42,253 nucleotides of DNA from NCBI GenBank assembly GCA_964355795.1, contig CAYHEQ010000004.1, positions 1 through 42,253 of the forward strand, written 5' to 3'. The notes under the pieces were generated by a model, which ran no database searches, was not told the DNA's origin, and saw nothing but the letters and a program-made list of their open reading frames with translations. This DNA comes from an uncultured Candidatus Saccharibacteria bacterium (lineage in GTDB: Bacteria; Patescibacteriota; JACPGU01). The translations under genes and the position numbers were made by a program. Position 1 is the stretch's first letter, and each line of letters opens with the position of its first letter. Positions 17,093 to 41,505 of this stretch are shown piece by piece.

Positions 17093-18607
17093 TTACTCAA
17101 AGTCTCCATCCTCGTCCCAATCATTGACGACAATACGGGGCTTTTCCCCTTGCTGGGCTTCTTGTTCTAGTTTAGTAAAATTAATCTTTTCTTCGCCCCT
17201 TTTTTCCCGAGATTTGATAATTCGCTCCAAGATTGAACCTTTGACTTCTTCTATCTTGGGCGTATCCGAGTCTATATCGGAAAGACTGGGCGCGTAGAGT
17301 GCGTGGTCATCAATAGCCTTGACCTCTTTGGAAACAACTGGCGCGGGAGAAGCAACTACCGATGCCACTGGTTTTTCAAAAATAACTTTTTCTTCTTTCC
17401 CTTTAGCTAGAATAGGCGCTGACTTGGCCACGCCCAGATATTGGTAAATTTTTTCAAAAGCTAGTTTCTCGGCTTCGGCCAAAGAGGTGTTTTCTAACTT
17501 AAATCCAGAAGCCTGCTTGTGACCACCACCGCCCAAGAGCAGACAAATTTTGTCCGCTTCCAAGGAAGAATCTTCCACGGTCCTAATACTACCGGTCACT
17601 AGCCCTTTTTCTCTTTCCACCAACAACATGAATATTTTGGCCCCGGGAGCGGTGATCATCAAATCGCCCAACACTTGTCCGAAATTAGTATTTTGAAAAC
17701 CGCCCTTCTCCACTTCATGTAAAGAGAGGGTGGACCAGACTATTTTGTTCTCTTTATCTTCTTTGATATTAGCCAGGATAGAACCCCAAGCCTTCAAAGT
17801 ATTAACCGAATGAGTTCTGTAGATATTTTTAATAATCTCGTATCTCTGCGCGCCAGCGGCGATTAATTGCGCAGCGACAGTCAGAGACTTGGGAGTCGTA
17901 TTGCTATTTTGAAATCTATCCGTATCAGTCAAAATACCGGCCAAAAGCAAAGTGGCCACTTCCTTGTCCAGCAAGGTTTTGTCCAAAGCTTCAATCATAG
18001 AAACTAAGATCTCGGCGGTAGCGGTAGCGGTGGAATCAATGAGGTTGATGTCGCCAAAATAATTGTTGGTCACATGATGGTCAATCACTACTAGAGGCAC
18101 GCCTTGAAAAGCTTCTTTATTATCAGAAAAAGCGCCGTTGACGCGGTCTAGACTCCCGACATCCAAGATAATTATCAAATCATAAGGGTTACCAGTATGT
18201 TCAATAGACAAATCTTCTTTACTGATAGTGCCTTCAGCTGGAGAAATCACCAATCGTACTTCATTTTCACTGTCTTTGTGATAGCTGATTTTGCCCACTT
18301 TGCCAGCCGGGCTTTTGATTTTGACCACCACATCGCGATTCAATTGCAAATGTTCGGAAATAATTGTGTGTTGGGGTAAAAATTTGTAGACATCGCTGAC
18401 ACCTTCGGGTACTACCGCGTCCACTTTTTTGCCCAGCTTTTCCAAGATCAGCTTCATGGCGATAGTAGAGGAGATAGCGTCGCAATCCGGACGCACATGA
18501 GTTAACACCAAAATCCTTTGGGACTTTTTGATGAGTTCAATGATTTGTTGCTTGGGGCTAGGGTCTCTGACCATAGAGTCATTTGAGCCTACTTTTAGGG
18601 GATCCAT
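17093..18607 (-). CDS. DHH/DHHA1 phosphoesterase (NrnA-like) with a C-terminal extension
   Basis: Motifs HVRPDCDAISS, IDHH and GGGGHKQASGF. About 130 extra C-terminal residues. Confidence 0.85.
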   Translation of the reverse strand: MDPLKVGSNDSMVRDPSPKQQIIELIKKSQRILVLTHVRPDCDAISSTIAMKLILEKLGKKVDAVVPEGVSDVYKFLPQHTIISEHLQLNRDVVVKIKSPAGKVGKISYHKDSENEVRLVISPAEGTISKEDLSIEHTGNPYDLIIILDVGSLDRVNGAFSDNKEAFQGVPLVVIDHHVTNNYFGDINLIDSTATATAEILVSMIEALDKTLLDKEVATLLLAGILTDTDRFQNSNTTPKSLTVAAQLIAAGAQRYEIIKNIYRTHSVNTLKAWGSILANIKEDKENKIVWSTLSLHEVEKGGFQNTNFGQVLGDLMITAPGAKIFMLLVEREKGLVTGSIRTVEDSSLEADKICLLLGGGGHKQASGFKLENTSLAEAEKLAFEKIYQYLGVAKSAPILAKGKEEKVIFEKPVASVVASPAPVVSKEVKAIDDHALYAPSLSDIDSDTPKIEEVKGSILERIIKSREKRGEEKINFTKLEQEAQQGEKPRIVVNDWDEDGDFE

Positions 18608-18673
18608 ATCCTGAAAGATTAGTATATAAGGAAAAAATCTTCTTCACAAGAGAGATTCTTGCGCTGAAGTTAC

Positions 18674-18702
18674 ATTATATCACAAAATCAGAGTAAAGTC
18701 AA
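18674..18702 (-). promoter_or_regulatory. near-consensus sigma70-type promoter for the DHH phosphoesterase gene
   Basis: The minus strand reads TTGACT-17 nt-TATAAT with TG at the extended -10 position (ttgactttactctgattttgtgatataat). Confidence 0.6.
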
Positions 18703-18890
18703 CTTTTTGAGTAAAAACAGGAGCGAAAATGCCCCCATCACTTCTTTTTTGTTTTCACCCTGTACTCTTCCTTGTATATCCCTCTCAATTCTTTTTGGAT
18801 ATCTTGCGTATTCGCATGCGAACGGCTGGCTGGGTTCGGTTTCTCCTCAAAAAGAACAAGAAGCCCCAAATAGGACCTCTTGATTCCAAG

Positions 18891-19015
18891 AAACTTCGGA
18901 ACGAGCTCGCCAATTAGGATTAGCATTGTGAGGGTTGATTCTATTGACGTTCAACTTGTCATTGATGCCATTCCAGTTCACAATCACGACATTGCCATCG
19001 GCATCGCGCGAGCTA
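18891..19015 (-). repeat. DGR-type template repeat (TR)
   Basis: 125 bp matching 19360-19484. All 15 differences have A on the minus strand here. The implied translation is Asn-rich (NWNGINDKLNVNRINPHNANPNW). Confidence 0.85.
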
Positions 19016-19295
19016 AATTTTGTCTGACTCCCTCCGCATGCCACCGGCTTTCTTTTGCAAGATTCCTGTGTTCTCCCTTCGTCTCAAAGGGCTATGTTTC
19101 CGACCAATATCTTTGAGGAATATATGTCGCGCAGAATCAGACAAGCAGTTTCTCTAAAATGTGGCAAACCGCTATCCCCCACCACTCGCACTTTCTAAAA
19201 GCCAATCACATCATCAGAACAAGAATCGTTTTCTAAAATACACGAGTGGCGGGGGACCGATTGTATTAGCCAAAGATTATTTTAGCAAAACAAAA

Positions 19296-19323
19296 CCCCC
19301 GCGTCAAAACCACAACGCGGGGG
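19296..19323 (-). other. GC-rich hairpin 36 nt downstream of the VR
   Basis: cccccgcg-tcaaaaccacaa-cgcggggg, an 8-bp G/C stem just past the target gene stop. Confidence 0.6.
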
Positions 19324-19357
19324 GAATCCAAAGGATTCAAGATTAAGGTTTCAAGGA

Positions 19358-20188
19358 TTAAACTGCGGAACGAGCCCGCCAATCAGGATAAGCATTGCGA
19401 GGGCTGAAACTATTGACGCGCAACCTGTCATCGATGCCACCCCAGTGCACAATCACGACATTGCCATCGGCATCGCGCGAGCTAGTAATTGTGACGGTCT
19501 TGAGGTCGAGATGTTGGCCGGTATTCCAGTGATACCAGAGCTCGAGAAGAAGGCGTTCCTCAAGAGTAATAATGTCCATGCCTTCTCCTCGACAGGCATC
19601 AGCGGATTTGTTTTTGTTCTCCTCGTCCGCTTCTTGACCACCACGGAACCATTTGAAGTAGGTTTGGCTGGTGTTGCGCGGAGCCTCAACTATTTGTGTG
19701 TTGAGATCATCGTAGAGCTTCCACGCCTTGCTACTAAAGCGATTCTTGCACTTGCCAAAAAGTTCTTCGCGAGTAAGCCCCTCCAAAACAGCCATTAGCC
19801 ACTGAGAGTCCTTGGGCTTTTCGTGGATGAAAGCACTGGAAAGATCCACTTCTTTTTTGAAGACATCGGAATAAAAACGCTGAAGTCCCTCGATCTGCGC
19901 GCTATAATCTCCGATGGATTCAGAGGTAATCTTGCCAGAGGAGAATGCCTCAAAAAGTTTTATGGCAGTGGCTGGGGAGATGCCTACGGGAAGCTTCACC
20001 CAGATTGCTTTTGCAACATCCTTTGTTTGTCGCAAAAGTTCCGATATCTTCTTCGCCAGTAGGGTCTTCTTCCCAATCCAATACTGCGCGTCTAGAGCCA
20101 ACAAGTCGGTAGGGATCGATTGTACGACAGCGCTTATCAGCTCCCTAAGCTGTTTGGCGCTAAGGACAGTTCTATCATCTTTCTTCAT
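19358..20188 (-). CDS. DGR target protein (hypothetical, C-terminal variable region)
   Basis: 276 aa, with AAAGGAGGA 7 nt upstream of the ATG. The last 41 codons coincide with the VR. No recognisable family otherwise. Confidence 0.8.
   Translation of the reverse strand: MKKDDRTVLSAKQLRELISAVVQSIPTDLLALDAQYWIGKKTLLAKKISELLRQTKDVAKAIWVKLPVGISPATAIKLFEAFSSGKITSESIGDYSAQIEGLQRFYSDVFKKEVDLSSAFIHEKPKDSQWLMAVLEGLTREELFGKCKNRFSSKAWKLYDDLNTQIVEAPRNTSQTYFKWFRGGQEADEENKNKSADACRGEGMDIITLEERLLLELWYHWNTGQHLDLKTVTITSSRDADGNVVIVHWGGIDDRLRVNSFSPRNAYPDWRARSAV
19360..19484 (-). repeat. DGR-type variable repeat (VR)
   Basis: Partner of 18891-19015 at an offset of 469. Carries G/C/A (plus strand) at the 15 positions where the TR has T. 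Confidence 0.85.
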
Positions 20189-20373
20189 GATAGACAGTTC
20201 CTCCTTTCGCGTTTTATGCCCGCCGGCGGTTTGCCTGTCGCCCTACGGGCGATCAGGGTATAGATTTTGAAGGTTCGTAGCTTCCGAACCCGACTACTGC
20301 CATTTTACTCCTTTTTGGCTCTGCTGTCAAATAAATCTAGTTGACTATCTCCACAGACCCCTCCGGCCAGTTT

Positions 20374-22436: not shown

Positions 22437-22633
22437 GCGCCCATAGCTCAGTTGGTTAGAGCGCCACTCTTACCCGCCCGCCTGGACTTCGTTTGTGCGC
22501 CTATAGCTCAGTTGGTTAGAGCGCCACTCTTATAAGGTGGATGTCGCTGGTTCAAGTCCAGCTAGGCGCATTCGTCAAGGCGAAGTCGGGCGCGGTAAGG
22601 TGGAAGTCCCTGGTTTCAGCCCCAAGCTGACCT
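22437..22633 (+). pseudogene. disrupted outer tRNA-Ile-like copy split in its anticodon by a 123-nt insert
   Basis: 22437-22472 matches the first 36 nt of the intact tRNA with 1 mismatch. 22596-22633 is a degenerate copy of its 3' half that cannot form a T arm or acceptor stem. Confidence 0.6.
22497..22570 (+). tRNA. tRNA-Ile (anticodon TAT)
   Basis: Manual cloverleaf: acceptor gcgccta/taggcgc, D arm gctc-agttggtta-gagc, anticodon arm ccact-cTTATAa-ggtgg, T arm gctgg-ttcaagt-ccagc. No encoded CCA. Confidence 0.85.
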
Positions 22634-22641
22634 ACCGTAGC

Positions 22642-22730
22642 GCAATCTATTTGGCGAAGAGGAATAATCACCCCCGTCTGCAATGCTTTGCATAGCAATG
22701 CGGGCAGGTATTTCGCCAAGAGATTAAGCG
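22642..22730 (+). repeat. 89-nt structured repeat, copy A
   Basis: Shares a 58-nt core (1 difference) with 23418-23506. The closing helix is ttggcgaa/ttcgccaa. Confidence 0.7.
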
Positions 22731-22797
22731 CAGGGCAGGCAAGTCCATCCACGCGCATTTCGTAAGTGGTAAGCCAAGCCTTTTGTAAAATAAAAAT

Positions 22798-23202
22798 ATG
22801 ATAAAAGATATTATCAGACTTTTTGAAAAACAGAGTAAATTCTCAAAGACCATGATGGCCTTGATTGTCGTGGGAACATTGATGCTGTATTCATCTCTGA
22901 ATATTGTTTATAGGAATTACCAAATCAATAGACAAATAAAGGGTCTGGAGCAAGAAATCGCTTATTTACAAGAAAATAACATTGAACAAAGGAACAGAAT
23001 CCTGTATTATAGTACGGACGCCTTCGCTGAAAAGATTTTGCGACAAAAACTCAATCATCAGAAGGAGGGCGAGAGGGTCTACGCCTTGGCGCGCAAAGAT
23101 CCTGAAAGAGAGAAGTTAGTCAGAGAGCAACAGAAGTATCAAGAAAGGGAGGAGAAAAAAGCGAATATTTTGAAATGGTGGGATTTCTTCTTTAAGCACT
23201 AA
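22798..23202 (+). CDS. FtsB/DivIC-like septum formation initiator
   Basis: Single TM helix (MMALIVVGTLMLYSSL), a coiled coil (QINRQIKGLEQEIAYLQENNIEQRNRI), then DAFAEKILRQKLNHQKEGERVY. Confidence 0.6.
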   Translation: MIKDIIRLFEKQSKFSKTMMALIVVGTLMLYSSLNIVYRNYQINRQIKGLEQEIAYLQENNIEQRNRILYYSTDAFAEKILRQKLNHQKEGERVYALARKDPEREKLVREQQKYQEREEKKANILKWWDFFFKH

Positions 23203-23290
23203 TTGCGCGAATATTTGACTAATTGCGCGAATGAATGATCTCCGAAATGATTAGTGAAATTCGTTAAAAATTCGCGTAATTAGTGTATGT

Positions 23291-23362
23291 CGCGGGGTAG
23301 AGCAGTGGTAGCTCGCAAGGCTCATAACCTTGAGGTCGTGGGTTCAATTCCCACCCCCGCAA
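23291..23362 (+). tRNA. tRNA-Met (CAT), initiator-like
   Basis: Acceptor cgcgggg/ccccgca gives the C1:A72 mismatch typical of bacterial initiator tRNA. Anticodon arm caagg-ctCATaa-ccttg, T arm gtggg-ttcaatt-cccac. Confidence 0.85.
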
Positions 23363-23417
23363 TTTGAAATGTGTTACAGCAAGGATATAGATAGAAAAAC
23401 ATCTCACCCTCCGAAGA

Positions 23418-23506
23418 GCAATCTATGCCGAGAAGAGGAATAATCACCCCCGCCTGCAATGCTTTGCATAGCAATGCGGGCAGGTATTTCGAGGCGAGAT
23501 TAAGCG
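23418..23506 (+). repeat. 89-nt structured repeat, copy B
   Basis: Same core as copy A. The closing helix is gccgagaa/ttcgaggc, with three compensatory pair changes relative to A. Confidence 0.7.
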
Positions 23507-23535
23507 AAGGAGGGGTGTGGTTTTAGAAATAATTA

Positions 23536-23609
23536 GCCAGGGTAGCTCAGTTGGTTAGAGCGTAGGACTCATAAGCCTAAGGTCGAGAGTTCAATCCTCT
23601 CCCCTGGCA
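23536..23609 (+). tRNA. tRNA-Met (CAT), elongator; lysidine-type Ile2 not excluded
   Basis: Acceptor gccaggg/ccctggc, D arm gctc-agttggtta-gagc, anticodon loop ctCATaa, T arm gagag-ttcaatc-ctctc. Confidence 0.85.
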
Positions 23610-23612
23610 TTT

Positions 23613-23903
23613 ATGTTCTATGTATATATACTGCGAAGCACCAAATGCCAAAATTACTATATTGGCGTAAGTAATGATGTAAAAAGAAGATTAAAAGAGC
23701 ATAATAGTGGAATGTCGAAATCTACTAGTCCTTTCCGACCGTTTCTGCTCAAAAGGGTGGAGAGATACTTAACCATCAATGAGGCATACCGAAGGGAAAG
23801 ATTTTTGAAGTCAAAAAAAAGTAAAAAGATTATAGACCTAGTAGTAAAGAGTAGTCCCGACGTTCTTGCGGAGCAAGAAGTCGGGATCCCGATTTTGCGG
23901 TAG
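23613..23903 (+). CDS. GIY-YIG nuclease family protein
   Basis: FYVYILRS...NYYIGVSNDVKRRLKEHN...ERFLK has the GIY/YIG, R, H and E positions. The ATG starts 3 nt after the tRNA 3' end. Confidence 0.85.
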   Translation: MFYVYILRSTKCQNYYIGVSNDVKRRLKEHNSGMSKSTSPFRPFLLKRVERYLTINEAYRRERFLKSKKSKKIIDLVVKSSPDVLAEQEVGIPILR

Positions 23904-23905
23904 CA

Positions 23906-23979
23906 AACATCGGGACTCAGTTGGTTAGAGCACAGCACTCATAACGCTGAGGTCGTGGGTTCGATCCCCGCCCCTGGTA
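23906..23979 (+). pseudogene. tRNA-Met(CAT)-like copy with a damaged 5' acceptor/D region
   Basis: From the D loop onward it is a good tRNA (agttggtta-gagc, ctCATaa, gtggg-ttcgatc-cccgc, 3' acceptor ccctggt). The 5' 12 nt (aacatcgggactc) pair with it at only 4 of 7 acceptor positions. Confidence 0.45.
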
Positions 23980-23988
23980 TTTAGCATT

Positions 23989-24039: not shown

Positions 24040-24402
24040 TTAAGCGCAATTTTTAGCCAGCCATTCGGAGAGGTCTTTGACGGAGGCGGTAAAAAGATTA
24101 TTTTTGAAAAAATCAAAAGTGGCGGGACTGGAAGCGTCAAATTCTTTTTTATTAATCTTAAGAAAGACAGCCATAGCAGTCAAGGCTGTCGGCAGATTAC
24201 CGGACGCGAAAGGCTTCTTTTTCGCGATAGCGAAAATCAGCGCGCCAGCTTTGTCAAAAAGCGTGGGGAAAACTTCGTTGTTTTTGATGTAGCTGACTGT
24301 TCTTTTCAAAATCTTGGTGTCGCCAATGCCGTCGCGACCTCCTATTTCGGAGGTTACGCGACTATGGATGTATAGTATTTCGGAAGGAGATAAATAATTC
24401 AT
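24040..24402 (-). CDS. Fic/Doc-family toxin-like protein with a degenerate active-site motif
   Basis: Size (120 aa) and pattern (ILYIHSRV...GGRDGI...GALIFAIAKKKPFASGNLPTALTAMAVFL) fit Doc. KPFASGNLPT replaces the HxFx(D/N)(A/G)NKR motif. Confidence 0.65.
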   Translation of the reverse strand: MNYLSPSEILYIHSRVTSEIGGRDGIGDTKILKRTVSYIKNNEVFPTLFDKAGALIFAIAKKKPFASGNLPTALTAMAVFLKINKKEFDASSPATFDFFKNNLFTASVKDLSEWLAKNCA

Positions 24403-26880: not shown

Positions 26881-29193
26881 TTAAGATTGCGCTCTCGGAT
26901 TTCTACTACTAGGCCATTCCTCTACCATCAAAAATTCTTTTTTGCCAGCAAGGGGCAAGATCTGGTAGATTTCTTCGGTGATGAAAGGGATCATCGGGTG
27001 CAGGAGAATGAGAGAATTTTTCAAAATGAAAAGGAGGTTGTCTTTAGTTTCTTTTTCAATTCTTAATTGCTCTGCGTTTTTATTATTTGGATTTTGAGTA
27101 TTGGGTATTGTTTGTGATTTGTGATTTGTGATTTGTGATTTTGTTTCCTCTATATACTTATCGCAAAATTCGTGCCAGAAAAAATGATAGATCTCTTCTG
27201 CCGCTTGACCGAAACGGAATTTTCCCAGATTGTCATGGTAGGATTTTTTTAATTCTGCAAATTTTAATTTAATCTCTCGATCAGCCTCGGTATTTTCGGT
27301 AAAATCAAGCTCGCCTCGCTGTTCATAGCCATCCAGCTTCATCAAAACAAAGCGCGTGGCGTTCCAGATCTTGTTCATAAAGGTCTTGGCCATTTGCAAA
27401 ACATCCTCGGAAAATTTGATATCCGGTGTGCCGGTGGTTTGGTAAATCAAGCCAAATCGTGTCGCGTCAGCGCCATATTTCTCCACCATAAGCAGAGGGT
27501 CGATGCCAGTGCCGAGCGACTTGCTCATCCTTTTCCCTTCTTTGTTAAAGACGGTTGGGTTGATATAGATAGTGTGAAAAGGCGCTTCGCCCATAAATTC
27601 AATCCCTGAAAAAAGCATGCGCACCTCCCAGAGATTGATAATCCCGCGGTCGGTGACATTGATGGAATTCGGATAGTATTTTTCCAAATCTGTTTTCTTG
27701 TTTTCTTGACTTCTTGACTTCTTGACTTCTTGACCATCGGGCCAACCGAGAGTCGCAAATGGCCACAGCGCCGATGAAAACCAAGTATCCAGAACATCTT
27801 CCGATTGAACCATATCGCAATCACTGCAGAAAGGGCATTTTTCTGGCCTATTGGCTGAAACAATGCATTGGTTTTGAATTTTAGATTTTGGATTTAAGGT
27901 TTGTTTGGGATTTGAGATTTGGGATTTGAGATTTTCTGCCGTTTGGTTTTTACAAAACCAAACAGGCAGTTGGTGTCCCCACCAGATCTGACGGCTGATA
28001 CACCAATCGCGGATATTTTCCAGCCAATGCATCGCTGTCCCCTCGTATTGTTCGGGGATGATTTTCACCTTACCTGATTTTAACGCTTCAATCGCGGGCT
28101 TGATTAATTCCGCCATTTTCACGAACCATTGCTTTGACGGGATTGGTTCGATAACGGTGTGGCAACGGTAACATTGCGCGCTATTGTGAATATAGTTGTC
28201 GTCAATGCGATCAATCAGCCCCATTTTTTCCATATCAGCCACGATGACTTTTCGCGCCTCCAGTGTCGTCAAACCTGCATATTTGCCACAATTGGCCATC
28301 ATCTTGCCATCTTCGTCTATTATTTGCTTTAATGGCAAATGATGGCGAAGCGAGATATCGTAATCCACAGAGTCATGGGCGGGAGTGACCTTGATAGCTC
28401 CCGAACCAAAGGCGGGATCTACCATCTCGTCAGCGACCACGGTGATCTCAAATTCGCCCAAGACCCCGGGAATCATATATTTCTTACCCACCATCTCGCG
28501 GTATCTTTCGTCAGACGGATGAACCGCCACCGCGGTATCGCCGAGTTTCGTCTCCGGACGAGTGGTTGCTAAAACAAAGGGGCCATATTTGATCCAATAC
28601 AATTTCGTTTTTTCTTCCTCGTGTTCTATCTCCAAATCAGACAAAGAGGTCTTGCATCTCGGACACCAATTGACCACTCTCTCGCCTTGATAAATATAGC
28701 CCTTGTCCCAATAGTGCTTGAAGGCGACGAGAACTGCGCGAGAATAACCTTCATCCATCGTGAAACGAGTGCGAGACCAGTCGCAGGAGACACCAAGTTT
28801 TTTCAGCTGTCCCAAAATAGTTGCCTCGTATTGATCCTTCCATTCCCAAACTTTTTCGACGAATTTTTCCCGCCCCAAATCAAAGCGATTCACCCCTTCT
28901 TTTTGTAATTTTTGTTCTACTTTGTACTGCGTGGCAATCCCCGCGTGATCGGTGCCGGGGATCCAAAGCGTTGGTCGTCCCTCCATTCTTTTTTGTCGAA
29001 TCAAAACGTCTTGCAAGGTATTGTTGAGCGTGTGCCCCATATGCAATTCGCCCGTCACATTGGGTGGGGGGATGGCAATGACAAAAGGTTCTCCTTTGGC
29101 TTTTTCGGAGGGCGAGAAATATCCCGACTTTTCCCAAAGCGGGTAGATTTTCCCTTCCACTTCGGCTGGATTGTAGGTTTTGGAGAGTTCCAT
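26881..29193 (-). CDS. valS: valine--tRNA ligase (with in-frame low-complexity insertions)
   Basis: PPPNVTGELHMGH (HIGH), RMSKSLGTG (KMSKS), editing-domain block TTRPETKLGDTAVAVHP, and EDVLDTWFSS. Confidence 0.95.
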   Translation of the reverse strand: MELSKTYNPAEVEGKIYPLWEKSGYFSPSEKAKGEPFVIAIPPPNVTGELHMGHTLNNTLQDVLIRQKRMEGRPTLWIPGTDHAGIATQYKVEQKLQKEGVNRFDLGREKFVEKVWEWKDQYEATILGQLKKLGVSCDWSRTRFTMDEGYSRAVLVAFKHYWDKGYIYQGERVVNWCPRCKTSLSDLEIEHEEEKTKLYWIKYGPFVLATTRPETKLGDTAVAVHPSDERYREMVGKKYMIPGVLGEFEITVVADEMVDPAFGSGAIKVTPAHDSVDYDISLRHHLPLKQIIDEDGKMMANCGKYAGLTTLEARKVIVADMEKMGLIDRIDDNYIHNSAQCYRCHTVIEPIPSKQWFVKMAELIKPAIEALKSGKVKIIPEQYEGTAMHWLENIRDWCISRQIWWGHQLPVWFCKNQTAENLKSQISNPKQTLNPKSKIQNQCIVSANRPEKCPFCSDCDMVQSEDVLDTWFSSALWPFATLGWPDGQEVKKSRSQENKKTDLEKYYPNSINVTDRGIINLWEVRMLFSGIEFMGEAPFHTIYINPTVFNKEGKRMSKSLGTGIDPLLMVEKYGADATRFGLIYQTTGTPDIKFSEDVLQMAKTFMNKIWNATRFVLMKLDGYEQRGELDFTENTEADREIKLKFAELKKSYHDNLGKFRFGQAAEEIYHFFWHEFCDKYIEETKSQITNHKSQTIPNTQNPNNKNAEQLRIEKETKDNLLFILKNSLILLHPMIPFITEEIYQILPLAGKKEFLMVEEWPSSRNPRAQS
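27113..27140. repeat. 7-nt x4 tandem repeat inside valS
   Basis: tgtgatt x4, part of the in-frame segment ...QITNHKSQTIPNTQNPNNKN.... Confidence 0.85.
27705..27735. repeat. 8-nt x~4 tandem repeat inside valS
   Basis: cttgactt x3 plus cttgacc, encoding ...GQEVKKSRSQE.... Confidence 0.85.
27870..27934. repeat. T/G-rich stuttered repeat inside valS
   Basis: ggttttgaattttagattttggatttaaggtttgtttgggatttgagatttgggatttgagatttt encodes ...ENLKSQISNPKQTLNPKSKIQNQ... between the WFCKNQ and CPFCSDC blocks. Confidence 0.8.
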
Positions 29194-31772: not shown

Positions 31773-32048
31773 ATGAAAACTGTCATCAATATCAAGACCG
31801 ACAAAGTGGTGAAAGAAAACGCGCAAGAGATCGCGCGCGATTTGGGTCTGTCTTTGAGCGACATTGTCAATGCTTCGCTCCGTAATTTCATTAAAACACG
31901 GGAGATATATATTTCCGCCGTACCGCAAATGACCCCGGAATTGGAACGGCTTTTAGGCCCTATTGAAAAAGATATCGTTTTCGGCAAAAAGCTTTCTCCT
32001 GCTTTTTCTTCCGCCGATGAAGCTCTCGGCTATCTCGACACGCTATGA
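31773..32048 (+). CDS. RelB/DinJ-family antitoxin
   Basis: MKTVINIKTDKVVKENAQEIARDLGLSLSDIVNASLRNFI ribbon-helix-helix pattern. ATGA overlap with the downstream toxin gene. Confidence 0.8.
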   Translation: MKTVINIKTDKVVKENAQEIARDLGLSLSDIVNASLRNFIKTREIYISAVPQMTPELERLLGPIEKDIVFGKKLSPAFSSADEALGYLDTL

Positions 32049-32308: not shown

Positions 32309-33604
32309 TCACAGGTTTTTGCTCGACGCGACCTCAAAATTCATTTTGCTTAATTGCTTAATTGGTTTTTTGGTTAATTGGAACAAAGCGCAGGTCGCGA
32401 CCATTGTCGCGTTGTCGCCACAGTATTTGAGAGGGGGTAGAACGAGATTTGGATGTCCGACATCGAACCCGCTAGATGACGGACATCTCAGCTCACCTAG
32501 AGTAATCGCCATTTTTTCGCGCAAACGTTTGTTGGCGGCGACGCCTCCGGCGATAGAGATGGTCTTGGCTTTGTATTTTTGCGCGGCGCGGATAGTTTTC
32601 GCCACCAAAACATCAGTGGCGGCTTCTTCAAATTCGTAGGCGAACGATCCTTTTCGCGCTTCAGCCGAGGTCGCACCTCCGTCCGCTACGCTCTCCGAGG
32701 AACGACCCCCACTTTCGCGTTGCCAAGCATACAAAACGGCAGTTTTGAGACCGGAAAAGGAAAAATTGAGGTCCTTGCTGTCTAGCATAGGACGAGGGAA
32801 GGTTAGGCCAGTGTTGAGTGTTGAGTGTTGAGTGTTGAGTTTAGGATTTTGAATTTGAGATTTGTTTGTGTTTTGTGAAGTTTGTGTTTTGTGAAGTTTT
32901 TTTCGGTATTCATCCGCATATCGCGAGACGCTCGGTCCTCCGGGGTATCCCAACCCCAAAATCCTCGCCACTTTATCAAAGGCCTCCCCCGCCGCGTCAT
33001 CCAAGGTCTCGCCCAGCGTCTGATATTGACCATGGTCTTTCATTAAAATAAGCGAGGTATGCCCACCAGAGACCAGCAATATGATTGCTGGAAATTCGAA
33101 GGGGGTTGCGTTTAGGTTGAAATTTTGGATTTGTAATTTGTTTGTGTTTTGTGTTTTGTAATTTGTGTTTTCGCGAATTTTATCGGAGATAAAATTCGCG
33201 TAGATGTGTCCCTCCAAATGATTCACCGGTATCAAGGGCTTCCCCCACGCCAGCGCCAATGATTTGGCGGTATTAACGCCTACCAGAAGCGAGCCAATCA
33301 GCCCTGGATAGGCGGTAACGGCGATAGCGTCTATCTGTCGAGGTGTCACCTCGGCATCTTTGAACGCCTTATCAATGACAGAGATGATCTGCTCCACATG
33401 AGCGCGAGAAGCCACTTCTGGCACCACCCCGCCGGTTAAAGCGTGGATATCCACTTGAGAGGCAATAACAGATGACAAAACGTGTGCTCCTTTTTGAAGT
33501 CGCACTTCGTCTGGTGCCGAAGAACGACTTCTTTGAGGAGCGCGCAACTCCACCACCGAAGCGGCCGTCTCATCACAACTTGTTTCAATGCCTAGAATAA
33601 TCAT
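32309..33604 (-). CDS. tsaD: tRNA N6-adenosine threonylcarbamoyltransferase TsaD (insertion-rich)
   Basis: MIILGIETSCDETAASVV, NHLEGHIYANF, VSGGHTSL, GGVAANKRLRE. At 431 aa it is clearly longer than the family norm because of several inserts. Confidence 0.9.
   Translation of the reverse strand: MIILGIETSCDETAASVVELRAPQRSRSSAPDEVRLQKGAHVLSSVIASQVDIHALTGGVVPEVASRAHVEQIISVIDKAFKDAEVTPRQIDAIAVTAYPGLIGSLLVGVNTAKSLALAWGKPLIPVNHLEGHIYANFISDKIRENTNYKTQNTNKLQIQNFNLNATPFEFPAIILLVSGGHTSLILMKDHGQYQTLGETLDDAAGEAFDKVARILGLGYPGGPSVSRYADEYRKKLHKTQTSQNTNKSQIQNPKLNTQHSTLNTGLTFPRPMLDSKDLNFSFSGLKTAVLYAWQRESGGRSSESVADGGATSAEARKGSFAYEFEEAATDVLVAKTIRAAQKYKAKTISIAGGVAANKRLREKMAITLGELRCPSSSGFDVGHPNLVLPPLKYCGDNATMVATCALFQLTKKPIKQLSKMNFEVASSKNL
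32810..32898. repeat. tandem repeats inside tsaD
   Basis: gtgttga x4 (32810-32837) and ttgtgttttgtgaagt x2 (32865-32896), encoding ...KKLHKTQTSQNTNKSQIQNPKLNTQHSTLNT.... Confidence 0.85.
33108..33172. repeat. T/G-rich stuttered repeat inside tsaD
   Basis: gcgtttaggttgaaattttggatttgtaatttgtttgtgttttgtgttttgtaatttgtgtttt encodes ...RENTNYKTQNTNKLQIQNFNLNA.... Confidence 0.8.
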
Positions 33605-36169: not shown

Positions 36170-38953
36170 CTACTTCGCCTCTTGCCAATTTTTGCCCATC
36201 CCGCTATCAACAATTATCGGACATTTGAGCTGGAAAACATTTTCCATGATTTTCTTAATTTTTTCAGACAGAGCGCGCTCTGTCTCTACGGGGATTTCGA
36301 AAACCAGTTCGTCATGCACTTGCAGAATCATTTTCACTTCGGGATTTTTGGACAAAATCTGCCGGTCAATTTCTATCATCGCCAGTTTGATAATGTCCGC
36401 GGCGGTGCCTTGAATCGGCATATTGATAGCCATTCGCTCGGCCGATTTGCGGATTTGCATATTGGGCGAATTGATATCGGGAGTGGGACGACGCCGTCCC
36501 AGCAAGGTCTGGACATAGCCGTGTTCTTTGGCAAATTCAATCGTCTCGCTAAGATAATCTCTGACGCCAGAAAAATTTTCAAAGTATTGATCAATGAATT
36601 CTTTGGCCTCCTTTGGATCGACATCAATGGATTGAGCCAACCCATAGGCGCTCATGCCGTAGAGGATGCCGAAATTGACCACTTTGGCCATCCGTCTCTG
36701 GTCTTTTGTCACCTTGTCTGCCTCAACATGAAAGACGGCCATGGCGGTCTCGGTATGAATATCGCGCCCGTCTTTGAACGCTTGCAACATTTTCCTATCC
36801 CCCGATAAATGCGCGGCAACCCGTAGCTCGATTTGCGAATAGTCAAAAACCATCAGCGTTTGCCCTTTTTCGGCGACAAAAGCCCCACGGATTTGTTGCC
36901 CCCATTCGGCGGAGGCCGGAATATTTTGTAGGTTGGGGTCGGTAGAAGACAGCCGTCCCGTCGCTGCGATGGTCTGACTGAAATTAGTATGAATCCGCCC
37001 ATCCATGGGATTGACTGCTTTGGGTAGCGCCTCCAGATAAGTATTTTGTAATTTGGAAAGCTCCCGATATGCCAAAATAGGCTCAATGATAGGGTGGGCG
37101 CCTTTTAATTTTTCCAGCTCTCCGGCGGCGGTAGAAAGACCGGTTTTATTTTTTTTAATCAATTCTGACGAGATTTTTAATTTTTGGAACAAAACTTCCG
37201 CCATCTGCGAGGGAGAAGCGATATTGAAATCCGACCCCGCGAGTTTATGAATCTTTTTTTCCAGCTCTTTGATTTTCTCCGCAACTATCCGCGATATCTT
37301 GTGAAGTTTTTCCGCGTCAATCCGCACCCCGTGCCACTCCATATCAGACAGGACTCGCAAGAGAGGCATTTCCACATCATAAAAGACATCGCTGATTTTT
37401 CCCGTCAATCTCTTCTTCAACAATTCGTACAGTCGCCAAGTAAAATCCGCGTCCTCGGTGGCGTATTGGGTCGCCTCATTGATATCGGTGTCGGCAAAAG
37501 ATTTTTGTTTGGCGCCTGTGCCAATCAATTGTGAAATCGGAATCATCTGGTGCCCGAATTCTATGAAAGCCAGATTGTCCAAAGAATGACCTCGACGAAC
37601 AGGGTCAAGACAATATGATGCCAACATCGTGTCAAAATAGATACCTGCCATTTTTACACCCGCTTTGCGGATAGCCAATAGATCATATTTTATATTTTGG
37701 CCAATCTTCCTTATCTTTTCGTCTTCAAGAATGAGTCGGAGCGTTTCCATGACCAATTTCTTCGGCAACTGTTGGCCCACCGTATGCCCCACCGGGATAT
37801 AATACCCCTCGCCCAACTTCCAAGAAAACGACAGCCCCACCAACTCCGAATTGAGTGCCCCCAAGTCCGAGGTCTCGGTATCAATGGCGAACTCCTTTTG
37901 CTTTTTCAATTCTTTCAGAAACTCGCCGAAAGATTTCTGGTCATTAACGAGTTTGTATTTGTGGTTTCGTAGAGGCAGGTGATTACCTGCCTTCTTTCTG
38001 GGCAGATTATTATCTGCCCCTACGGAATCAAACAATGTCTGCTCACCCTCTACTGGCTTCTTGCCCATCAGCTTCAACAACCTCGGCATCAGCGAGCGGA
38101 ATTCGTATTTTTGGAAAATAGCGGTGGCGTTTTTGAAATCCACATCATGCAAGACACAGGCTGGCAGGTCCAATTTGATCGGCGCGTTGAGATTGATGGT
38201 CGCCAATTTCTGCGATAGGTAAGCGTTGCCTTTGTCTATCGCTAATTTGTCGCGAATACTATCAGACATCGCGAATTTTCCCGAATCAATCGCAGAGTAG
38301 ACCCCATCCAGCGTCTTATATTTCTGCAACAAATCGGTAGCGGTCTTCTCGCCAATGCCCTTCACACCAGGAATATTATCCGACGCGTCGCCTCGCAGGG
38401 CTTTGTAGTCCACGACTTGCGAAGGCGTTAGCCCCATTTTTTCTACCACTCCTTTTTCATCATAAATAATGGTGTCCTTGATGCCTTTTTTCAAAGTATA
38501 GACAAAAGTATTTTTGTCCACCAGTTGCAAGGTGTCCATATCGCCAGTAACGATATAAGTATCCACACCAAGATTTTTACCATCTATTTTGTGACAGAGC
38601 GTCCCAATGAGGTCATCAGCCTCGTATCCTTGCAATTCAAATATCGGCACATTAAGCGAGGTCAGCACCTCTTTGGTCATCGGGATCTGCTCGTAAAGTT
38701 CATCTGGCGCTTTGACCCGCGTCGCCTTGTATTCTTTGTACTCTTCGTGCCGAAAAGTCGGTCCCGCCATATCAAAAGTCGCCGTGATATAATCCGGCCC
38801 GACATCTTCAATGGCCTTCAGCAAAGTGGCCGTGAACCCGTATACCGCCCCTATTGATTTCCCGTCCTTCGTCCGCAAATTAGGGATAGCGTGATACGAG
38901 CGATGGACAAGAGCGTTGGAGTCAATTAAAAGGAATTTTTTTTTCTTGGTCAT
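36170..38953 (-). CDS. polA: DNA polymerase I
   Basis: 5' nuclease (LLIDSNALVHRSYHA, GDASDNIPGVKGIGEKTA), 3'-5' exonuclease (FAIDTETS) and polymerase motifs A/B/C (DYSQIELR, RRMAKVVNFGILYG, QVHDE). Confidence 0.97.
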   Translation of the reverse strand: MTKKKKFLLIDSNALVHRSYHAIPNLRTKDGKSIGAVYGFTATLLKAIEDVGPDYITATFDMAGPTFRHEEYKEYKATRVKAPDELYEQIPMTKEVLTSLNVPIFELQGYEADDLIGTLCHKIDGKNLGVDTYIVTGDMDTLQLVDKNTFVYTLKKGIKDTIIYDEKGVVEKMGLTPSQVVDYKALRGDASDNIPGVKGIGEKTATDLLQKYKTLDGVYSAIDSGKFAMSDSIRDKLAIDKGNAYLSQKLATINLNAPIKLDLPACVLHDVDFKNATAIFQKYEFRSLMPRLLKLMGKKPVEGEQTLFDSVGADNNLPRKKAGNHLPLRNHKYKLVNDQKSFGEFLKELKKQKEFAIDTETSDLGALNSELVGLSFSWKLGEGYYIPVGHTVGQQLPKKLVMETLRLILEDEKIRKIGQNIKYDLLAIRKAGVKMAGIYFDTMLASYCLDPVRRGHSLDNLAFIEFGHQMIPISQLIGTGAKQKSFADTDINEATQYATEDADFTWRLYELLKKRLTGKISDVFYDVEMPLLRVLSDMEWHGVRIDAEKLHKISRIVAEKIKELEKKIHKLAGSDFNIASPSQMAEVLFQKLKISSELIKKNKTGLSTAAGELEKLKGAHPIIEPILAYRELSKLQNTYLEALPKAVNPMDGRIHTNFSQTIAATGRLSSTDPNLQNIPASAEWGQQIRGAFVAEKGQTLMVFDYSQIELRVAAHLSGDRKMLQAFKDGRDIHTETAMAVFHVEADKVTKDQRRMAKVVNFGILYGMSAYGLAQSIDVDPKEAKEFIDQYFENFSGVRDYLSETIEFAKEHGYVQTLLGRRRPTPDINSPNMQIRKSAERMAINMPIQGTAADIIKLAMIEIDRQILSKNPEVKMILQVHDELVFEIPVETERALSEKIKKIMENVFQLKCPIIVDSGMGKNWQEAK

Positions 38954-39008
38954 GAAGCTCCTCGAGTGTAATCACGAGAGGTTTCGTAGGAAATCGCGAC
39001 CTTGCCTG

Positions 39009-39028
39009 TTCCGACCGTAGCGTCGGAA
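39009..39028. repeat. CCGAC..GTCGG hairpin in the polA leader
   Basis: ttccgac-cgtagc-gtcggaa. The loop is the reverse complement of the loop at 15878-15883. Confidence 0.65.
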
Positions 39029-39141
39029 GGGAGCGAAGCGGAATCCCCCGAAGCAGATTTCGAGACCAACACTGGGTTATTTCTAAATATTTTTCTCAAC
39101 ACATGCCTCGCTTAAACACAAATCTATATTGCGAAGGGTGG

Positions 39142-39279
39142 ATAGATTATGGCATTAGTTGCTATAATCTATTATACTAGATTGTGAAGAATATCAAAAT
39201 GTCGGATGTAGCATCCGACTAGCACAAAAACACTCAACACATAATCTTTATGCGAGATATCTTCACATAAAGACGAGTT
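39142..39279 (+). repeat. conserved left block, copy 1 (bidirectional promoter-like region plus hairpins)
   Basis: 39142-39203 aligns to 41353-41414 and 39244-39279 aligns to 41470-41505. Contains tgctataat (+), TTGATA-15-TATAAT on the minus strand facing polA, and the hairpin ctttatgcgag...cacataaag. Confidence 0.8.
39200..39225 (+). repeat. TGTCGGATGTAGCATCCGACTAGCAC hairpin element, copy 2
   Basis: Identical to 13704-13729. It occupies the slot where the 41.4-kb copy of the block has a different hairpin. Confidence 0.85.
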
Positions 39280-40658: not shown

Positions 40659-40973
40659 ATGAATGCCGTCATTAATTTCAAGACCGACAAAAAGATCAAG
40701 ACAGAGGCGCAGAAGATCGCGGGACAAATGGGGCTCACCCTCTCTGATGTGATGAATCTTTATTTGAGAGAGTTTATCGTGAAAAAGGAGTTGCTTGTTA
40801 CTGCCCACCAAGATGAATCGCGACCCTCAAAGATGCTCCTTGGCGCGATAAAAGAATCCAGAAGAAACCTCCGAGATGGTGATATTTCTCCCGCTTTTTC
40901 CAACGCCAAAAACGCTATTTCTTGGCTCAATAGCAAAAACAAAAAGTTCCAAAACGGCAAAATATGCCGCTAA
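40659..40973 (+). CDS. RelB/DinJ-family antitoxin (second copy)
   Basis: MNAVINFKTDKKIKTEAQKIAGQMGLTLSDVMNLYLREFI parallels the 31773 protein from its first residue. The track start at 40632 adds 9 residues. Confidence 0.8.
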   Translation: MNAVINFKTDKKIKTEAQKIAGQMGLTLSDVMNLYLREFIVKKELLVTAHQDESRPSKMLLGAIKESRRNLRDGDISPAFSNAKNAISWLNSKNKKFQNGKICR

Positions 40974-41252: not shown

Positions 41253-41354
41253 CTAAAATTGACCATCTCTAGTGCGCAGATTGGGTATCGCGTGATACGC
41301 CCGATGGACAAGGGCGTTGGAATCAATTAAGAGAAATCTTTTCTTCTTGGGCAT
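41253..41354 (-). pseudogene. displaced remnant of the polA 5' end
   Basis: Encodes MPKKKRFLLIDSNALVHRAYHAIPNLRTRDGQF*, compared with PolA MTKKKKFLLIDSNALVHRSYHAIPNLRTKDGKS. Confidence 0.8.
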
Positions 41355-41505
41355 AGATTATAGCTTTACTGGCTAGAATCTATTATACTAGATTGTGGGT
41401 AATATCAAAATGTCAGGACAGAGTCCCTGCTCGCATGGGATGACGATTACCTATAATACCCGACATACCATCTTTATGCGAAATATCTTCGCATAAAGAC
41501 GAGTT
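41353..41505 (+). repeat. conserved left block, copy 2
   Basis: Aligns to 39142-39279, with a different central hairpin and the perfect hairpin ctttatgcgaa-atatc-ttcgcataaag (41472-41498). Confidence 0.8.

Follow-up and report, generated by a model that had tools for sequence, protein, structure and literature searches.

A diversity-generating retroelement cassette with an intact template RNA gene that has very probably lost avd and the reverse transcriptase by deletion

We find that the window, by which we mean the whole stretch of DNA analyzed (an entire contig of 42,253 nt, or 42 kb), carries on its minus strand a real target gene of a diversity-generating retroelement (DGR), with the template RNA gene still intact beside it. 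No reverse transcriptase (RT) gene lies on the contig. The locus is very probably a DGR cassette that lost avd and the RT through deletion. With less assurance, we favor the fuller reading in which this cassette has also become inactive and its variable repeat is frozen.

The locus is recognized by a direct repeat of 125 nt, whose two copies, the template repeat (TR) and the variable repeat (VR), lie at an offset of 469 nt (Table 1) and agree at 110 out of 125 positions. On the minus strand, each of the 15 mismatches exchanges an adenine of the TR for another base in the VR (nine G, three C, and three T). Since the TR has 35 adenines in 125 nt, the placement of 15 out of 15 mismatches on adenines has a hypergeometric probability of 3.6e-10. 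There are no non-adenine mismatches in the window: a preliminary description of this DNA had counted 110 identical nonvariable positions, and all 110 are indeed identical. The peptide encoded by the TR is an asparagine-rich version of the VR peptide, with AAY codons at the variable sites, and the VR forms the 3′ end of the protein-coding target gene. Such a pattern marks the template and variable repeats of a DGR. That the repeat has nothing to do with DGRs, and arose by chance or by duplication of the 3′ end of the target gene, is hardly credible: The absence of an RT speaks for this and nothing more does, whereas the adenine signature and the AAY codons of the TR, a lineage-specific RNA leader that matches its covariance model at 125.9 bits, and the homology of the whole cassette to 27 intact DGRs all speak against it. 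We regard the non-DGR reading as refuted by the adenine signature and the covariance-model matches of the leader.

Table 1. Features of the cassette and its flank in the window, in order of position
Feature	Coordinates	Strand	Description	Basis
NrnA-like DHH/DHHA1 phosphoesterase gene	17093..18607	-	Housekeeping neighbor	Pfam
Promoter of NrnA-like gene	18674..18702	-	TTGACT, 17 nt, TG-TATAAT; outside the DGR, on the far side of the inferred deletion	Promoter scan, 11/12 matches
Putative avd 3′ end remnant	18798..18866	+	~20 codons (DILRIRMRTAGWVRFLLKKN..KKP), stop codon lost	Avd HMM alignment and position
Hairpin and T run	18847..18882	-	9 nt 3′ of the TR	Terminator-like match
TR	18891..19015	-	35 adenines; encodes SSRDADGNVVIVNWNGINDKLNVNRINPHNANPNWRARSEV	Repeat comparison
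Structured 5′ leader of template RNA	19016..19274	-	Three conserved helices around an invariant GAAACTGC motif; abuts the TR	Alignment A3
Predicted template RNA promoter	19279..19307	-	TTGACG, 17 nt, TG-TAAAAT	Promoter scan, 10/12 matches and TG extension
Pyrimidine-rich motif and hairpin	19296..19357	-	Motif (CCTTGAAACCTTAATCTTGAATCC) directly after the VR, then GC-rich hairpin and T run (19323-19296)	Terminator-like match; motif and hairpin position kept in 33 loci (alignment A2)
VR	19360..19484	-	Last 41 codons of the target gene, through the stop codon; 15 mismatches, all at TR adenines	Repeat comparison
DGR target gene	19358..20188	-	276 aa	ORF and translation; 82 homologs; alignment A1

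The 82 homologs of the target protein have ~240 aa and are found in Patescibacteria; the few with source names belong to Candidatus Uhr-, Magasanik- or Vogelbacteria. The family combines a conserved core with a hypervariable C-terminal stretch of ~40 residues, which occupies the same alignment columns as the VR. Neither the protein nor its family has a Pfam match. A search of the PDB with Foldseek, using the AF2 model of the target (pLDDT 84.5), placed C-type lectins at the top (TM-scores of 0.35-0.45 for the first two, normalized by target length); these fold matches are not significant (E ~0.8). Identity to the closest homologs, all from other samples, is 39%-51%, and at 90% clustering the target protein stands as the one member sequence of its cluster.

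The preliminary description had reported that the TR/VR pair lacks an RT or avd in cis, that the flanking spacers are too short for either gene, and that no RT-like YxDD block can be seen; Pfam, a motif scan, and HMMs of the lineage bear out this account for the contig, which is the scope of the absence described here. None of the 30 largest ORFs matches PF00078, PF22296, or PF05635 in a Pfam scan; they belong to housekeeping families (PNPase, RNase J, GroEL, PolA, IleRS, TsaD, EF-P, and others). In a six-frame motif scan of the contig, no real ORF contained a YxDD block. An HMM made from 25 RTs belonging to the same DGR lineage had no match in the stop-to-stop segments of at least 30 aa of the contig, even at E ≤ 10, nor did an Avd HMM of the lineage, run with filters off on segments of at least 20 aa, find a match on the contig at E ≤ 10. 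The cassette thus has no DGR-clade RT and, of the accessory avd, just the ~20-codon remnant recovered in a targeted test. An RT concealed by a frameshift or otherwise, whether within 18608-19357 or at another place on the contig, is rejected by the six-frame lineage HMM searches.

Two assemblies from a Hainich groundwater well (H52), ENA ERZ1292617 (L001; 6265 nt, spanning target-TR-nrnA-pnp) and ERZ1292616 (L002; 2276 nt), are 100% identical to the window. Because the arrangement recurs in them, misassembly as the cause of the missing RT is rejected; a misassembled contig and a frameshift that hides the RT, both considered in the preliminary description, are ruled out. We infer that the missing RT reflects a deletion. 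A related alternative places the effect in the population or the assembly: An intact avd-RT would stand beside the TR in most or some cells, and the contig would be a deletion variant or a collapsed path. Long reads do show structural variants with and without an intact RT in Thiohalocapsa (PMC10907252), L002 ends 26 nt after the TR, and coverage is just ~3.5-4x. However, the end of L002 falls at another place than the inferred breakpoint, and low coverage readily accounts for it; L001, an independent assembly, crosses the TR-nrnA junction at 100% identity. We consider this alternative very unlikely. The VR is identical in all three assemblies, which are consensus sequences (coverage ~4x) and as such do not reach VR microdiversity.

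The spacer between VR and TR, given as 344 nt in the preliminary description and found to be 344 nt here, is not empty; it carries a promoter together with an RNA leader that is structured and conserved. The GC-rich hairpin that follows the VR is the predicted terminator of the target gene and may also act as a VR-side recognition hairpin. The -10 box of the template RNA promoter occupies the same alignment position throughout the family, with two invariant columns, and transcription is predicted to start at ~19272, where the conserved leader begins. These promoter and terminator calls combine consensus matches with family conservation.

The leader measures ~260 nt in the window and ~200 nt across the lineage. 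From an alignment of 31 loci, RNAalifold predicted 34 base pairs, 27 of them with compensatory changes. Over the 33 pairs counted, 94.4% of cells are paired, as against 80.5% in column shuffles (none of 500 reach the observed value) and 32%-55% in slid-partner controls. In the window, 30 of these 33 pairs form, and its sequence matches 67 of the 71 columns conserved in intact loci (94%, within the intact range). The covariance model of the leader, R1, places the match in the window at 19002-19274; a second match there is weak (12.1 bits, E 0.03) and probably due to chance. In other genomes the model detects 41 leader loci (e.g., L022:959-1163 and L064:9210-9410). No Rfam family was found for 18608-19357, where the only matches are weak, miRNA-like, and caused by the long first hairpin of the leader. 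The leader is a candidate for the RNA element recognized by RT-Avd.

On the other side of the TR, the hairpin (18882-18857) with its T run is probably the terminator of the template RNA. Every TR-bearing locus has a hairpin in this place, the versions in L011 and L019 can be aligned with that of the window, and in intact relatives it stands between the TR and the 3′ end of the convergent avd. With a leader directly 5′ and a hairpin directly 3′ of its TR, the window has the arrangement of the B3 lineage of CPR. We also considered that the window might be missing an RNA element located antisense to the 3′ end of avd. In intact loci, this part of avd shows no unusual conservation at third codon positions; such an element is rejected because the synonymous sites are ordinary, and the RNA unit of the window therefore appears complete. 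Since promoter, leader, TR, and hairpin are all present, 18608-19357 appears to be a complete template-RNA gene rather than empty spacer, its product a discrete predicted ncRNA with a promoter of its own.

For comparison, the 80 best target-family loci were taken from GTDB representative genomes. An intact layout is seen at 27 loci: the target gene, a spacer of 220-370 nt, the TR, a hairpin, an ORF of 110-125 aa on the opposite strand, and an ORF of ~350 aa. The TRs of these loci are ~120 nt long and in the general layout differ from their VRs at adenines only, non-adenine mismatches averaging ~0.6 per locus. Pfam assigns the opposite-strand ORF to the bAvd-like family (PF22296, 4e-15) and the ~350-aa ORF, which carries LPLGNVTSQLFAN and RYCDDF, to RVT_1. 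The canonical order in the lineage is target/VR, terminator hairpin, promoter, leader of ~200 nt, TR, hairpin, avd on the opposite strand, and RT. [quoted passage not shown] (PMC5758913). As a separate observation, in most intact loci (e.g., L019:11261-11314 and L022:1608-1678) the reverse-strand avd and the RT gene share an antisense overlap of ~50-150 nt at their 5′ ends. The overlap contains a nearly invariant G run, which corresponds to Pro-Pro-Pro in Avd (CCC codons, third positions 86%-100% conserved) and Gly-Gly-Gly in the RT.

In the intact loci, avd runs away from the TR on the opposite strand and its stop codon lies in or beside the hairpin. The window has a plus-strand ORF at 18729-18917 whose residues 24-43 resemble the final 20 positions (111-130) of the lineage Avd HMM. 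The alignment scores 4.1 bits (E 0.0023, taking one sequence), which two out of 1000 shuffles attain; strand, position, and frame relative to the hairpin agree with L011 and L019. This is modest evidence that the segment is the remnant of a truncated avd. In nhmmer, the match between the window and a nucleotide profile of the TR-to-RT spacer is confined to the end of the TR, the hairpin, and the first avd bases (E 2.9e-6), and beyond ~18797 we see no similarity to intact cassettes before the nrnA promoter follows. A deletion of at least ~1.4 kb would have taken avd codons 1 to ~110 together with the whole RT.

The gene across this putative scar was described earlier as NrnA-like, and Pfam finds the DHH/DHHA1 families in it. 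The near-consensus promoter reported ahead of it is also present, although its -35 box lies 188 nt from the TR rather than ~170 nt; between the TR and the start codon of nrnA there are 283 nt. The gene order spoIID, nrnA, rpsO, pnp, rnj is kept in distant relatives without a DGR at this place (contexts of NrnA homologs with 54% and 52% identity). Synteny with sister species gives no basis for dating the deletion, the nearest NrnA homolog being just 54% identical and its spoIID-nrnA slot being occupied by unrelated genes. The slot itself (18608-20340 in the window, L091:6506-8001, and L092:3368-4940) is conserved in position and varies in cargo, holding an ORF of 269 aa or 111 aa in the two relatives and the DGR cassette in the window; it behaves like an insertion hotspot.

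The 41 leader-bearing loci in other genomes show what else can become of such cassettes. A full RT is present in 27, nine are degenerate, and five are not assessable because of a contig end or, in L021, a run of N within the RT; the degenerate share is thus nine out of 36 assessable relatives, about one quarter. The degree of loss varies among the nine. Half an RT is left in L037 and L042, and L017 has avd and no RT. Only the C-terminal ends of avd and RT remain beside the TR in L066 and L074, and only a C-terminal RT fragment in L070. L077 and L071 have neither gene, and L003 has also lost its TR; what is left there is half of the leader and an IS200-type transposase, with the target intact. 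RT loss is seen directly at relA/spoT, where the order RelA-target-RVT_1 in one genome stands against RelA-target-IS200-leader remnant (L003) in another, the RVT_1 gene thus lying downstream from a relative of the L003 target at the same position.

Like these loci, the window keeps target and TR, lacks the RT and most of the accessory gene, and has known intact homologs. The nine degenerate relatives and the shared architecture therefore identify it as a degenerate DGR locus, of a kind already described in Thiohalocapsa PB-PSB1 (PMC10907252). Of the two options in the preliminary description, a recent relic or service by a remote RT, the relic gains support from the canonical TR-hairpin-(avd)-RT layout, the hairpin and ~20-codon avd end that were kept, and the decay series in the nine relatives. 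The claim that a TR/VR pair with a remote RT would be an unusual architecture was overstated: Incomplete loci without an RT have been described for Thiohalocapsa PB-PSB1, along with the question whether such loci are active in trans (PMC10907252).

Two of the degenerate relatives have features of their own. In L003 (9747-11804), the target, an IS200/IS605-type Y1 transposase, and the half leader are together flanked by 82-nt direct repeats that are 98% identical; rearrangement of this decayed cassette, or its transfer in one piece, is possible. In the RT-less L071 (10325-10900), the "TR" shows just six adenine differences from the VR, and in place of the usual hairpin the motif, hairpin, and promoter that follow the VR occur a second time after it, which suggests recombination between the VR and TR flanks.

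In the deletion reading, the window would retain the non-protein half of a DGR after the protein half, avd and RT, was deleted. Without an RT no cDNA would be made, so the VR would now be a frozen allele and the template RNA gene a leftover as yet undecayed. Two features stand against a relic: There is not one non-adenine mismatch in 110 positions, and promoter, leader, hairpin, and target ORF are all intact. Both would also be expected if an RT were still acting in trans. The locus would then be a satellite cassette, whose TR RNA is still transcribed and is reverse transcribed by the remote RT-Avd of another DGR, so that the VR is still being rewritten. We consider this possible, though unlikely. 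In its favor, besides the complete and undecayed RNA unit and the absence of non-adenine mismatches, is the conservation of the leader across the lineage, so that recognition by a paralogous RT-Avd is plausible and another DGR could use the RNA of the window. Remote action does occur in the family: The VR of L067 has its matching TR in L057, at a distance of 19 kb on one contig (28 adenine and five non-adenine mismatches). According to a statement in PMC5758913 that cites its ref. 9, avd, TR, and brt function from a plasmid in the Bordetella system. CPR genomes often have several DGR loci, and trans use was proposed for the incomplete loci of Thiohalocapsa (PMC10907252).

Several results weigh against service in trans. 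There is no RT on the 42-kb contig, and no second copy of the TR or VR was found in JGI metagenome or viral contigs (zero matches for a TR query with adenines replaced by N; the source groundwater samples are apparently in ENA only). The target has no close paralog among 5.8 billion proteins, and the VR does not vary among the three assemblies. Genomes with a degenerate cassette have no second target-family locus among the 80 retrieved. Finally, non-adenine TR/VR mismatches number 0, 0, 2, 3, and 6 in RT-less relatives (mean ~2.2), more than the ~0.6 of intact loci, which suggests that RT-less cassettes are generally not refreshed. The intactness of the leader does not discriminate as a test of ongoing selection: The leader of L066, a clear relic, is as intact as those of functional loci, and for this reason intactness does not separate a relic from service in trans. 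The most extended form of the alternative, that the window holds a working satellite module next to its target, served by the RT-Avd of another DGR in the same small genome, and that RT-less modules (about one quarter of the loci in the lineage) are normal and maintained, seems to us doubtful.

Returning to the deletion relic, we compared the window with four known systems. It belongs to the same lineage as the B3 DGRs of CPR/Patescibacteria, TR-(avd)-RT (Wu et al. 2018, PMC5758913; DGR clade 2 of Roux et al. 2021, PMC8144416): It agrees with the 27 intact loci in its target family and leader, in where the TR and hairpin lie, and in the direction of the avd remnant, while avd is cut to ~20 codons and the RT is absent from the whole contig. 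The degenerate loci of Thiohalocapsa PB-PSB1 (Dore et al. 2024, PMC10907252) likewise have an RT, TR, or accessory gene that is missing or pseudogenized beside an apparently intact target, and they raise the same question of whether such loci are frozen or served in trans. They belong, however, to a different phylum and RT clade, and read data show diversification at most of the incomplete loci there, whereas the window is known from its consensus VR alone, which is invariant in three assemblies.

With the prototype DGR of Bordetella phage BPP-1 (Handa et al. 2018, PMC6182149), the window shares adenine-specific transfer from TR to VR, a template RNA with flanking non-template RNA (required in BPP-1), and a GC-rich hairpin downstream from the VR. 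In BPP-1, however, the TR has its essential flank on the 3′ side, in the form of a 140-nt spacer, and avd is an upstream gene of the same strand, whereas the conserved structure in the window lies 5′ of the TR, with just a hairpin on the 3′ side. The template RNA of the Trichodesmium erythraeum DGR (Pfreundt et al. 2014, PMC4143802) offers a parallel as a discrete ncRNA with the TR expressed from its own promoter; it is abundant and 265 nt long, and the neighboring RT gene is interrupted by a stop codon (PMC4143802). Unlike the TR of the window, that of Trichodesmium still stands beside the RT gene and serves at least 12 targets, and its transcription was shown experimentally, whereas that of the window is predicted from promoter and terminator matches.

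In about one quarter of the cassettes of this lineage, the RT is lost or truncated and the target gene is intact. Surveys anchored on the RT therefore undercount past, and possibly present, DGR targets, and many "VR-only" genes could represent fossils instead of targets served remotely. The leader (~200 nt, strongly covarying, and without an Rfam match) extends across the lineage, and R1 finds TR cassettes independently of any RT or VR. If service in trans did prove true, it would mean that several template RNAs share one RT in a modular way; working satellite modules would let several Patescibacteria proteins be diversified with one enzyme set, and RT-anchored surveys would miss them.

Elsewhere on the contig, we note several features separate from the cassette. 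A tRNA cluster at 22496-23983 comprises a tRNA-Ile with the unusual anticodon UAU, two tRNA-Met (CAU), and a fourth tRNA-like sequence at 23912-23975 that is detected by Rfam only (33.8 bits). The spacers of ~105 nt within the cluster are duplicated (22627-22734 and 23403-23510, 86% identical). Promoter and 5′ regions are duplicated at 38857-39279 and 41258-41505 and at 31773-31849 and 40659-40735, with identities of 79%-87%. The starts of two RelB-like antitoxin genes are related to each other, and a Fic/DOC gene is present (24040-24402 is listed with the duplicated regions); several toxin-antitoxin-like modules are dispersed among the housekeeping genes of the contig. Low-complexity inserts interrupt two unrelated essential genes in frame, that of IleRS at 27087-27141 and 27866-27934 and that of TsaD at 32841-32895 and 33117-33171. 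The inserts of the two genes are alike (e.g., NKSQIQNPK and KSQITNHKSQ) and derive from plus-strand repeats of the GATTT/GTGATTT type.
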